Below, one piece after another: positions 6,001 to 7,972 of a stretch of 7,972 nucleotides of DNA (the first letter of the stretch is position 1; the number at the start of each line of letters is the position of its first letter). This DNA comes from a virus (taxonomy: Duplodnaviria > Heunggongvirae > Uroviricota > Caudoviricetes), in IMG/VR virus record IMGVR_UViG_2671180884_000020, positions 1 to 7,972 of that record. One strand, given 5' to 3'. The position numbers were made by a program.

Positions 6001-7972
6001 AAAAGGTGTTGAGTGGATTGCTGGTCTGCTTGCTGCATGGAGAGCTACCGCAGCATGAAGATGATAAAAATGGACTGGAAATTTTTGCTGGTCTGGCTGA
6101 TTCCGTTTTTATGGGTGGTTGCCCAGTTAATTACTGCTATCAAGGGGTAAAGATGTCAGACAAACTCATAACGCCGGCAAAGGTCCTGTGTGTGATTGTC
6201 GGTATTTCATTTTCACTAATGCTGGTTGCTCTTTTTCTGTCCCTCGCCTGGGTGATGTTGTCTTCGTCGGGGCTGCTGGGGTGACAGTGACTGATGACAT
6301 CAGCAGAGCGCTGGCTTTTGCTATTAAGTGGGTGGCTGTTGGTATTGCTGTGTCTCCGATGCTGTATGGGCTGGCAAAACTGGTCATTGCGCTGAAATCG
6401 TGAACTTTAAAAAGATGAGTGCTGAACTTATTCTTCGGGCAATGGCATTTGCCATTCGTATTGTGGCCATTGCTGTTCTGGTCTGGGCAATTCGTTGGTG
6501 GTGATATGAACCGTGTTCTGTGTGTGGTGATTATTGTCATGCTGGTAGCCTGTGGTGTGCTTAGTCTGGGGCTGAATCATTACCGTGATAACGCCATAAC
6601 CTACAAAGAGCAGCGCGATAAAAAAGTCAGTGAGCTGGAGCAGGCAAATGCAACCATTACTGATATGCAGCAGCGCCAGCGTGATGTTGCTGCACTTGAT
6701 GCCAGATACTCGAGGGAATTAGCCGATGCGAGAGCTGAAAATGAAACTCTGCGCGCTGACGTTGCCGCTGGTCGTAAGCGCCTGCGGGTCAACGCCACCT
6801 GCCCCGGTACCGTGCGTGAAGCCACCGGCACCTCCGGCGTGGATAATGCAACCGGCCCCCGACTGGCAGACACCGCTGAACGGGATTATTTCACTCTCAG
6901 AGAGCGGTTGATGCTGATGCAGAAGCAGCTGGAAGGGGCGCAGGAATATATCCGCACTCAGTGCACTAAGCTGGCTTTTTATTATCCGGAGGATATATGA
7001 AGAAATTACGGGTAACCGTAGAACCTTTTCAGGGAACAATTCCGTTCCGTATTTTGCAGCGTGGTCGTGTTCTTGTTGAAGGTTCGTTCAGTGGTAAATG
7101 TACGCAATTACACTCCCGGACCTTTCAGGTGAATGCCACGAATGAAGAGCTAACCGTTGAGTGTACGATGAATACCGCTAAATGCCGCATGGTATCCGCT
7201 GCATTACAGCGAGTGTGTTGAGCGACCTTATTATCCATGCGCGGTATTGTCGCCGTATCCCCGCATTAACAGAGACCGCAGCCCGACCGGGAGACTCCTC
7301 TGCGCGAGTGTGCGGGGATAATCAAAAACGATACACACCGGGGTTTACCGCGTTAACGGAGCGCGGCGTTGTCCCCTCATAGTCGCCTGTCCGGTGCGAT
7401 GGTGGAAGAAACCGAACGTTCATTTCTCGTTATTTTTCATGCTGGCCGGGCGCAGATGCGTTGCATCTGTTGCCAGCCTTCTCCTGCAGGCTTCAATAAC
7501 CCACGCTGAAAAGTTACCGGACCCTTTATGCTCAAGGGCTATGTTGATTTGTTCAATTATGTGATTGGGGAAACGGATATTGCGGGTTGTGGTTCTGCGG
7601 GTCCGGTTTTTCGATGACATATTTATTTCCTTTACTGATTGTCATATGACGGGGATTTTACATGGCTCAGCTTCGTACACTCCAGAGCAGAATCAAAACA
7701 CTGAATACCCGACGGGTGAATATTCTGAAGGGGGTGCAGCGTCGTGTCAGTGGCAGTGCACGTGTTTCCCTCAAGCGTCATATCTGGCTGAGGGACGCCG
7801 GGCAGTGCTGTATCTGTGGTCGTGTGGTTGACCTCTGTGACAGTGAACTCGATCACCGAATTGCACTTCAGTTCGGTGGTGGTAATGAGGAGACGAATCT
7901 CTGGACGCTCTGTACCGAATGCCATCGACAAAAGTCTGCTCGTGAAGCGGCGGGTGGTATGCCGGACCCGAC

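Follow-up and report, generated by a model that had tools for sequence, protein, structure and literature searches.

Four short open reading frames (ORFs) that lie in tandem between the antirepressor gene ant and the spanin gene Rz of a lambdoid Escherichia coli prophage belong to small-protein families that evolve under purifying selection and move as cassettes among the lambdoid prophages of E. coli, Salmonella and relatives. A sequence-only reading of this DNA had proposed tandem genes for small single-pass membrane peptides, joined by coupling-type junctions and situated inside the lysis cassette, and these prove to be real and conserved. The same reading had treated the four as equivalent members of an array, which has to be corrected: ORF2 alone is full length and native, while ORF1, ORF3 and ORF4 are N-terminally shortened recombinant copies, truncated or rebuilt at recombination joints. 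As to function, we lean tentatively, at a little under an even chance, towards late-expressed, promoter-less accessory inner-membrane lysis proteins drawn from mosaic mobile families.

The window, i.e. the whole stretch of 7,972 nucleotides that was analyzed, is part of a lambdoid E. coli prophage and shows 100% identity to strain G1/2 (NZ_CP060083.1). Its relevant features are as follows.

4336..4551, + strand: class II (S21-type) holin, which opens the cassette (PF04971 Phage_holin_2_1, E 9e-33; 'class II holin family protein' in PGAP)
4556..5089, + strand: R21-like lysozyme, the endolysin (PF00959, E 2e-24)
5090..5230, + strand: conserved structured segment past the endolysin stop (MFE -47.9 kcal/mol, z -3.9 versus shuffles)
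5363..6058, + strand: KilAC-domain antirepressor, ant (PF03374, E 5e-28)
6055 (ATG) to 6150 (TAA), + strand: ORF1, 31 aa, MKMIKMDWKFLLVWLIPFLWVVAQLITAIKG
6153 (ATG) to 6284 (TGA), + strand: ORF2, 43 aa
6281-6403 (TGA), + strand: ORF3 from GTG 6281, 40 aa
6287-6403 (TGA), + strand: ORF3 from GTG 6287, 38 aa
6415 (ATG) to 6504 (TGA), + strand: ORF4, 29 aa
6166-6540, - strand: antisense ORF of 124 aa, open in the window
6506..7000, + strand: Rz, the inner-membrane spanin subunit (PF03245, E 5.5e-50)
6726-6911, + strand: Rz1, the outer-membrane subunit, embedded in Rz (PF06085, E 3.5e-21)

Elsewhere in the window, STnc100 at 1199-1404 is the sole Rfam match (E <= 0.1). The hydrophobic N-terminus of the R21-like lysozyme, RKLRYGLSAAVLALIAAGA, suggests a membrane-anchored endolysin of the signal-anchor-release (SAR) type, an assignment that also leans on the phage 21 endolysin. 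The segment downstream of the endolysin stop is conserved in all R-to-Rz intervals examined and ends with a terminator-like hairpin (about 5195-5221), which is present in loci L003 and L089 too; in ant-less relatives a canonical hairpin, AAAACCCCG...CGGGGTTTT, stands directly upstream of the first small ORF.

The four ORFs fit within 450 nt, and both their coordinates and the junctions that had been described for them were confirmed: the ant stop overlaps the ORF1 start as ATGA (6055-6058), ORF1 and ORF2 are 2 nt apart (6151-6152), the ORF2 stop overlaps GTG 6281 of ORF3 as GTGA, and a single nucleotide (6505) separates the ORF4 stop from the Rz ATG. The start of ORF3 is ambiguous, being either of the two GTG codons or, according to PGAP, CTG 6248, which gives a 51-aa product; ORF1 is missed by PGAP and annotated in phage PhiR5_1. 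One hydrophobic segment per ORF, as originally noticed, is borne out by a maximal 18-residue mean Kyte-Doolittle hydropathy of 1.86-2.82, and at least four such ORFs arise in just 0.05% of 2000 dinucleotide-preserving shuffles of the 450 nt. The flanks on the C-terminal side of the hydrophobic cores are 3-15 residues long with a net charge of 0 to +2; each protein is a predicted single-pass inner-membrane peptide with a short cytoplasmic N-terminal segment, one helix and almost no tail.

All four ORFs match PHROG families, with which they share both direct sequence membership and the lambdoid (pro)phage niche. ORF2 covers its profile almost entirely (phrog_4906, E 4.5e-21, residues 1-43 on positions 7-49 of 49), whereas ORF1 (phrog_6632, E 1.6e-4, positions 20-43 of 45 by HMM), ORF3 (phrog_1115, E 6.4e-25, positions 30-67 of 67) and ORF4 (phrog_4493, E 2.6e-6, positions 25-54 of 56) span only the C-terminal transmembrane part of theirs. 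The native relatives of these three match over the full length, at E 1.4e-13 for the 44-aa form of ORF1 and at E 6.6e-42 and 1.4e-24 for the long forms of ORF3 and ORF4. Since ORF3 and ORF4 are paralogs, the four PHROGs amount to three small-protein families. Homologs of ORF2 (103 at E <= 0.01) mostly have exactly 43 aa, with identity down to 62%; with the native 44-aa form as query, homologs of ORF1 were found in Salmonella and Providencia; and a 38-aa ORF3-type protein with a short MNAEL-type N-terminus, P0048, occurs on 56 contigs. An ORF3/4 alignment compared with one genome per species yielded 36 pattern matches, none of them confirmed.

The peptides had been said to belong to no described family, and this holds for function though not for cataloging. 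No functional description was found in Pfam (E <= 0.1), NCBIfam or PADLOC, whose scans gave no match, in PDB profile searches, which returned noise only, or in the searched literature: no paper was found by peptide substrings or a RefSeq accession, the small-gene ribosome-profiling supplements for Sakai contain no match to these ORFs, and they go unmentioned in the consulted reviews and papers about spanins, Stx phage genomes and small phage proteins. As sequences, they are already filed in the four PHROGs together with phrog_3246, and three of them as 'hypothetical protein' entries in RefSeq (WP_001280935.1 for ORF2, WP_244513824.1 for ORF4, and WP_042004856.1).

Comparison with native loci shows how the shortened copies are built, their parent genes having 44 aa (ORF1), 48/60 aa (ORF3) and 37/50 aa (ORF4). 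Judged against ant-less loci such as L014, ant is an inserted module that took the place of the hairpin and of 20 codons at the start of native ORF1, and ORF1 is an N-terminally rebuilt copy of the 44-aa phrog_6632 gene. ORF3 is shown to be a 5′-truncated duplicate of the 48/60-aa phrog_1115 gene, joined 2 nt past the ORF2 stop with loss of the native ATG, the Shine-Dalgarno sequence and 10-22 N-terminal residues; GTG 6287 was formerly an internal Val codon of the native ...APVTDD... stretch, and GTG 6281 lies within the joint itself. ORF4 is the short-N-terminus form of phrog_4493, full-length 37/50-aa forms of which are found in L088 and L170-L249. The native ORF3/4 genes furthermore have a conserved second in-frame start upstream (M-x-KYKR...-MKNG), preceded by a Shine-Dalgarno sequence, which would add a strongly basic 12-residue N-terminus that is absent from the window copies. 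In an AlphaFold2 model of the 60-aa ORF3 form (mean pLDDT 80), a short helix at the N-terminus is followed by one of 39 residues.

That the segment might be the degraded remnant of a longer gene was offered at the outset as grounds for refutation. In a mild sense this is what was found, as three of the ORFs are shortened, but the parents are themselves only 44-60 aa long, and among 1.84 billion representative proteins ORF3/4 have no homolog above 87 aa. A related objection, which we consider rather improbable, is that ORF2 works and the rest is mostly recombination debris, with the truncated ORF3, and possibly ORF1 and ORF4, as untranslated or functionless scars whose frames are still intact only for want of time. 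The losses at the ORF3 joint, the 20 codons that ORF1 gave up to ant, the missing Shine-Dalgarno sequence of ORF4 and the presence of full-length and truncated ORF3 side by side in L007 all agree with such an origin. Moreover, loci with the window-type ORF3 copy are all at least 95% identical, so that its intact frame says little. On the other hand, across all 26 unique sequence variants, every truncated copy has an open frame and has kept a start codon at its joint; conservation of the short ORF4 start region extends to the divergent locus L087; the MNAEL-type short N-terminus recurs in P0048; and the joint of ant and ORF1 is retained in O157 Stx prophages, where changes are biased to synonymous ones (dN/dS 0.14). 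Polymorphism per site is also lower inside the ORFs (0.007-0.038) than in the upstream non-coding flank (0.155).

Conservation of the reading frames, which had been proposed as a check, bears out purifying selection on the families. Pairwise dN/dS over the ORFs is 0.04-0.27 at a pS of 0.47-0.69 (0.04-0.14 for ORF1 and 0.09-0.27 for ORF2), and in each of the four the sense frame has the lowest pN/pS among six frames (ORF1 0.26, ORF2 0.53, ORF3 0.18, ORF4 0.18), significantly for the ORF3 (P 2e-9) and ORF4 (P 7e-7) families. The four are not chance ORFs. The ORF3 copies in the window-type context are nearly invariant (2 synonymous and 0 non-synonymous polymorphisms), so that selection on the truncated copy itself is not measurable; ORF4 in the window carries an in-frame 3-nt insertion relative to the majority.

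These data also bear on the idea that a longer ORF, read in another frame or from the opposite strand, is the real gene, either the 124-aa antisense ORF or a long ORF3 overlapping ORF2. Both are open in the window, and the long ORF3 can call on the 51-aa PGAP annotation and on the 90-position profile phrog_3246, which matches that form; this profile collects 71-90-aa ORF3 forms, and appears to be a collection of over-extended ORF3 calls overlapping ORF2. The antisense frame has a pN/pS of 1.37 over ORF2 and 0.58 over ORF4, falling to 0.33 over ORF3 alone, in which sense and antisense frames share their wobble positions. Of 21 unique 645-nt variants, 12 shorten the antisense ORF to 73 aa and leave the sense ORFs intact. 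The ORF3 frame reaches a pN/pS of 1.18 across ORF2, CTG 6248 has no Shine-Dalgarno sequence (dG +1.0), and conservation of the 51-aa form at the protein level begins only at residue 17. On frame-specific pN/pS and ORF integrity both were rejected, and a longer gene of this kind is barely credible.

Signals for expression were sought by simple consensus searches. From the endolysin gene to Rz, the window, L089 and L003 show no promoter-like site on the + strand, and the window shows none on the other strand either; the one terminator-like hairpin comes before the ORFs. With overlapping or very short junctions besides, expression from the late transcript only is therefore most likely: the Q-antiterminated late transcript would be the sole message for the peptides, which would be made along with holin, endolysin and spanin. 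Ribosome-binding sites differ along the array, with a Shine-Dalgarno sequence for ORF1 (dG -6.4 at -12), for ORF2 (dG -7.8, AAGGGG) and for ORF3 at GTG 6287 (dG -9.0, short spacing) or GTG 6281 (dG -5.5), and none for ORF4 (dG -2.4), while the native forms of the small ORFs have strong ones (dG -8.4 to -13.2). The Shine-Dalgarno sequence of Rz (dG -9.2) is located inside the last codons of ORF4, which read RWW-stop (CGT TGG TGG TGA). Translation would most likely be coupled from ant into ORF1, from ORF2 into ORF3 and from ORF4 into Rz.

The likeness to type I toxins that had been suggested for the array fares poorly on the same evidence. Toxin-antitoxin-like modules of this type, in which antisense RNAs hold small hydrophobic toxins in check, resemble the ORFs in size (29-43 aa), in the single hydrophobic helix (Hok, Ldr, TisB, Ibs, ShoB, Zor) and in tandem occurrence, and the layout recalls the ldr and ibs toxin arrays. 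However, the defining antisense RNA and promoter were not found: Rfam at E <= 0.1 assigned the region no RNA family, antitoxin or otherwise, promoter-like sites are missing on both strands from the endolysin gene to Rz, and a single antisense match in L003 is at chance level. Instead of forming separate units, the genes are also part of an operon with coupled junctions, and they match no curated family in sequence, which leaves the toxin explanation highly implausible.

Of 5426 complete E. coli genomes, 1746 match the region at least in part and 581 hold 80% or more of it, and the phage record PhiR5_1 has the same arrangement at 99.4% identity. In a survey of 329 sampled loci, small ORFs follow the endolysin gene in every locus in which an endolysin was detected (a few loci end at contig ends and hold only the small ORFs and the following gene), and they are usually immediately upstream of Rz/Rz1. 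The contexts include S21 holin with R21 lysozyme, holin_3_7 with M15 peptidase, holin with a GH108-like endolysin and, in Salmonella, holin_2_3 with lysozyme; the families thus stand behind at least three endolysin types, membrane-anchored and soluble, which argues against a SAR-specific role. ORF2 is always preceded by ORF1 or an ORF3-type gene. K-12 Qin has no named small protein at this position, because rrrQ overlaps rzpQ and nothing lies between them.

A lysis role is suggested by position and by the likely late expression. The peptides would most likely be dispensable accessory lysis proteins, as the overlapping rrrQ and rzpQ of Qin would imply, that tune the timing or efficiency of lysis; their partner in the membrane would be the holin, the membrane anchor of the endolysin or the transmembrane domain of Rz, or they might instead act on membrane energization. 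The junction of the endolysin gene and Rz also accepts ant, a non-lysis gene, and may therefore simply tolerate insertions. This gives room to a different account, unlikely on balance, in which the peptides are membrane-targeted accessory proteins of the 'moron' type, unrelated to lysis and placed there by that tolerance; they would modulate an inner-membrane protein of the host, keep out superinfecting phages or incoming DNA, or change the physiology of the envelope. Cassettes that are mosaic, dispensable and independent of holin and endolysin type would suit such proteins, as would those loci where the neighbor is not Rz but a 60-aa lipoprotein gene of the moron kind (phrog_7528). Against this, the lack of a promoter-like site together with the upstream hairpin makes expression in the lysogen unlikely, no PADLOC defense model matches, and in the loci examined the families are confined to the lysis cassette.

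Roughly one in three complete E. coli genomes, those with O157:H7 Stx prophages among them, carries at least one such gene in the lysis cluster; in Stx phages, control of toxin release is generally attributed to lysis. Annotation of these genes is inconsistent in spite of purifying selection, ORF1 being overlooked and ORF3 given an implausible CTG start by PGAP. Should the peptides modulate lysis, the best-studied lysis system gains a further layer of regulation; otherwise they offer a clear-cut case of small membrane-protein genes that are shuffled and truncated at mosaic joints. A bolder extension, which we consider unlikely, is that the junction of lambdoid endolysin and spanin genes, that of O157 Stx phages included, houses an exchangeable class of lysis regulators: ORF2 would act with an alternating partner of the ORF1 or ORF3/4 type, the dual start of ORF3/4 would give two isoforms with opposing effects in the manner of holin and antiholin, and recombination inside the segments that encode transmembrane helices would generate new chimeras. 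Were this true, the peptides would set when lysis occurs, and hence how large the burst is and when toxin is released, in a sizeable fraction of E. coli prophages.

Among known systems, holins and antiholins with dual starts (lambda S105/S107; phage 21 S68/S71) are likewise small inner-membrane proteins of the late cassette, and the two in-frame starts of native ORF3/4, with a longer product that has a basic N-terminus, may follow a similar logic. A holin reading of the ORFs themselves is unsupported: none matches a holin family in Pfam or PHROG, and they have one transmembrane segment without the highly charged hydrophilic C-terminal tail of holins. In addition, the cassette already has its own holin (PF04971), and the window copies have no dual start. 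A spanin reading is unsupported as well, since a domain that could cross the periplasm is missing: at most 15 residues follow the hydrophobic core, and the homologs of ORF3/4 are as short as noted above. The idea, taken from L224, that ORF4 is the N-terminal transmembrane domain of another inner-membrane spanin was rejected: the 93-aa read-through form of L224, which overlaps a lipoprotein gene behind it, is a one-off TGA-to-TGC change (all other loci of the group stop at RWW), long homologs are lacking, and the lipoprotein gene is separate and recurs in other phages as a pseudogene some 770 nt past Rz.

Lambdoid morons such as bor are also dispensable and mosaic and adjoin Rz/Rz1 in late regions. 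The bor gene, which codes for an outer-membrane lipoprotein, has its own promoter, runs opposite to the late genes and is active in the lysogen, whereas the present ORFs are co-directional, promoter-less and encode inner-membrane peptides; neither an own promoter nor a downstream terminator, as expected of a moron unit, was found by the simple consensus scan. Finally, the releasin gp25 of phage Mu (DUF2730) is not a holin but a membrane protein with a single pass, 99 aa and a 73-residue cytoplasmic domain; its gene lies a few genes past that of a SAR endolysin, whose release depends on it (PMC9239132). A releasin reading of the ORFs is unsupported, there being no Pfam match (E <= 0.1) and the proteins being too short for a cytoplasmic domain of ~70 aa. 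Mu gp25 nonetheless shows that lysis can call on small accessory membrane proteins; the present families differ from it in that they also occur with soluble endolysins.

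The interval between the antirepressor gene ant and Rz, part of the late lysis operon, has been shown to carry a mosaic of conserved genes whose products are micro-proteins that cross the membrane once. The window is 100% identical to strain G1/2 (NZ_CP060083.1) and belongs to a lambdoid E. coli prophage, while the ORF1-ORF4 region shares 99.4% identity with phage PhiR5_1. In the 5′ part, a SASA esterase gene is followed by DUF1378 and DUF826 genes and then by the holin; upstream of the esterase gene lies a full-length match to the Rfam sRNA STnc100 (RF02076; 1199-1404, + strand; 143 bits versus a gathering score of 47, E 1.6e-32). 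From the holin onwards the features are:

4336-4551, class II S21-type holin
4556-5089, R21-like lysozyme
5090-5230 (+), structured segment after the endolysin stop
5363-6058, KilAC antirepressor, ant
6055-6150, ORF1, 31 aa; ATGA overlap with ant, 2-nt gap before ORF2
6153-6284, ORF2, 43 aa
6281 (GTG, GTGA overlap with the ORF2 stop) or 6287 (GTG) to 6403, ORF3
6415-6504, ORF4, 29 aa; stop 1 nt ahead of the Rz ATG
6506-7000, Rz, with Rz1 embedded at 6726-6911
6997-7221 (+), 74-aa ORF; ATGA overlap with the Rz stop

All four small ORFs and their four junctions were confirmed as the sequence-only reading had described them, and so was a hydrophobic segment in each (18-residue window, mean hydropathy 1.86-2.82); when the region is shuffled with its dinucleotides preserved, only 0.05% of the shuffles contain four or more such hydrophobic ORFs. 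The antirepressor gene sits within the late lysis cassette, with the endolysin gene on one side and the small ORFs on the other; its Shine-Dalgarno is weak (dG -5.6), and a hairpin lies upstream (about 5195-5221). The 74-aa ORF appears to be part of a longer gene, its phrog_2571 match being confined to positions 100-171 of the 291-position profile.

ORF1-ORF4 are genes, not chance ORFs. Each matches a PHROG profile, and for all four, pN/pS computed over 329 related loci is lower in the annotated sense frame than in any of the other five frames:

PHROG match of the window copy, sense-frame pN/pS and P for synonymous excess
ORF1: phrog_6632, E 1.6e-4; 0.26; P 0.015
ORF2: phrog_4906, E 4.5e-21; 0.53; P 0.016
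ORF3: phrog_1115 (also 3246 and 4493), E 6.4e-25; 0.18; P 2e-9
ORF4: phrog_4493, E 2.6e-6; 0.18; P 7e-7

Much clearer than these values is dN/dS from comparisons of divergent loci, where synonymous divergence is near saturation: 0.04-0.14 for the ORF1 family (pS 0.47-0.67), 0.09-0.27 for the ORF2 family (pS 0.58-0.69) and 0.12 for the 60-aa form of ORF3 between E. coli and Salmonella (pS 0.5). Profile search and dN/dS, which the sequence-only reading had named among its checks, came out in favour of the frames (PHROG matches; dN/dS 0.04-0.27 across the ORF1-ORF3 families). Most ORF2 homologues are exactly 43 aa long, down to identities as low as 62%.

Other frames were considered and rejected. 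A 124-aa antisense ORF (6166-6540) has a pN/pS of 1.37 over ORF2 and 0.58 over ORF4, and is broken in 12 of the 21 unique variants of the ant-less arrangement; its value is low (0.33) only over ORF3, where the two frames share their wobble positions. The ORF3 frame is open across ORF2, which accounts for PGAP's choice of a 51-aa protein from CTG 6248 as well as for the 90 positions of the phrog_3246 profile; this extension is unconstrained (pN/pS 1.18), its protein is not conserved, and the CTG lacks a Shine-Dalgarno (dG +1.0). Annotation is inconsistent: PGAP calls ORF3 from that CTG (WP_042004856.1, 6248-6403, with a 37-nt overlap with ORF2) and leaves ORF1 (6055-6150) uncalled, while in the PhiR5_1 record ORF1 is annotated and ORF3 begins at GTG 6287.

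ORF1, ORF3 and ORF4 are shorter in the window than in their native form; only ORF2, which has its own Shine-Dalgarno (dG -7.8), is full length. Native ORF1, with homologues also in Salmonella and Providencia, encodes 44 aa (L/M-IDFSKLIRELRLMISQLPNWKFLL...) behind a strong Shine-Dalgarno (dG -10.2). Insertion of ant took the place of the hairpin upstream and of 20 codons at the start of ORF1, leaving MKMIKMD-; the insertion joint is common to the window and O157 Stx prophages. Native ORF3 has 48 aa (MKNGLELKAPVTDDISRA...), or 60 aa when read from an in-frame start further upstream. In the window ORF3 starts 2 nt past the ORF2 stop, and the second of its GTGs (6287) is a once-internal Val codon (...APVTDD...), so this copy is a 5′-truncated duplicate; one relative (L007) holds full-length and truncated copies side by side. 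ORF4 is a paralogue of ORF3, with which it has the RA-AFAI(K/R) core and the N-terminal architecture in common; its full form has 37 or 50 aa, whereas the window carries a short MSAEL- form into which 3 nt are inserted in frame. Partial decay of the truncated copies, especially ORF3, is an alternative judged unlikely; ORF3 copies in this context are nearly identical (2 synonymous, 0 non-synonymous polymorphisms). Among 1.84 billion representative proteins the ORF3/4 profile finds only 22 relatives, all of 20-87 aa, so in no case does the family form part of a large protein. Both Met codons, the acidic linker and the single helix persist in diverged members, and AlphaFold2 models the 60-aa form as a short N-terminal helix plus a helix of 39 residues (mean pLDDT 80).

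Across the 329 loci, the stretch from the endolysin gene to Rz takes several architectures. ORF3-ORF2 is the commonest; ORF1-ORF2-ORF3-ORF4 without ant occurs in 69 loci (and in at least 581 complete E. coli genomes), ant-ORF1-ORF2 in O157 Stx prophages, and ORF3-ORF2-ORF3-ORF4, ORF3-ORF4 and ORF4 alone also exist, the window's own ant-ORF1-ORF2-ORF3-ORF4 being rare. In the loci examined ORF2 never occurs without ORF1 or an ORF3-type gene ahead of it, and the 2-nt ORF1-ORF2 gap is kept even in a divergent locus (L333). In one E. coli prophage (L087, 2631-2780) a 49-aa ORF unrelated to the others lies between ORF3 and ORF4. It contains a single hydrophobic segment (MIKAETTSQGADDAAKIIAVCRGIRHILTPVAWIICTALVAYTTIYLNR) and matches no PHROG profile; a similar N-terminus is seen in P0050 and P0198.

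Wherever an endolysin was detected, the small-ORF families follow its gene, in otherwise unrelated cassettes: S21 holin with R21 lysozyme, 3TM holin (PF05449) with M15 peptidase, holins with a GH108-like endolysin and, in Salmonella, holin_2_3 with lysozyme. In about 26 viral contigs (L224-L249, e.g. L229 1441-1798) the gene after full-length ORF4 is not Rz but one for a 60-aa lipoprotein (phrog_7528, 'unknown function', lipobox LVGC), with the junction, TGGTGGTGAYATG, unchanged. Holins and endolysins in these cassettes are of other kinds, and Rz/Rz1 could not be detected, save that part of L229 matches lambdoid Rz plus bor; in L224 alone (1441-1722) a TGA-to-TGC change removes the ORF4 stop, and the 93-aa read-through overlaps the lipoprotein gene. 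Two loci (L171 and L108) carry the same lipoprotein as a pseudogene, ~770 nt downstream of Rz.

No promoter-like site was found on the + strand from the endolysin gene to Rz in the window or in two relatives (L003, L089). The small ORFs would be expressed late, by read-through and translational coupling, and the Rz Shine-Dalgarno (GGTGGTGA, dG -9.2) lies inside the last ORF4 codons. The segment at 5090-5230 (folding z -3.9) ends in a terminator-like hairpin, inside the presumed single late operon; its first ~85 nt are kept in all related loci, and ant-less relatives (L003 2378-2410, L089 2369-2401) have a canonical A-tract/GC stem/T-tract terminator, the same in both directions. It could be an insulator or a 3′ UTR-derived RNA.

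The products may act within the inner membrane as accessory proteins. On the basis of position only, they would most economically be read as tuning lysis, which we put at somewhat short of an even chance. Basic lysis can do without these small genes, since K-12 Qin has none of them. A role that has nothing to do with lysis, as membrane 'morons' or in exclusion, is considered rather unlikely. The type I toxin-like character first suggested was not borne out, as neither an antisense RNA family nor a promoter was found in the region. Identity as holins (no family match, no charged tail), releasins (no DUF2730 domain; PMC9239132) or spanins (no periplasmic domain) was likewise not supported.

The sequences are already in RefSeq and PHROGs: PGAP lists ORF2, ORF3 and ORF4 as hypothetical proteins, and every matched PHROG family is labelled 'unknown function'. 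The literature searched gives no description of these families, nor of four observations made in this analysis: the ORF3-ORF4 paralogy, how three of the four ORFs came to be truncated, ORF2's constant association with ORF1 or ORF3, and the conserved ORF3/4 dual start. The ORFs are filed as uncharacterised members of the small accessory membrane proteins of phage lysis cassettes. Native ORF3 and ORF4 (e.g. L089 2435-2617, L088 2408-2560; proteins P0189, P0199, P0200) have a second in-frame start upstream, which has the stronger Shine-Dalgarno (dG -8.4 and -13.2) and adds a strongly basic 12-residue N-terminus (M-x-KYKRILLRLT), conserved at the protein level even in diverged members; this arrangement resembles the dual-start motif of holin/antiholin pairs.
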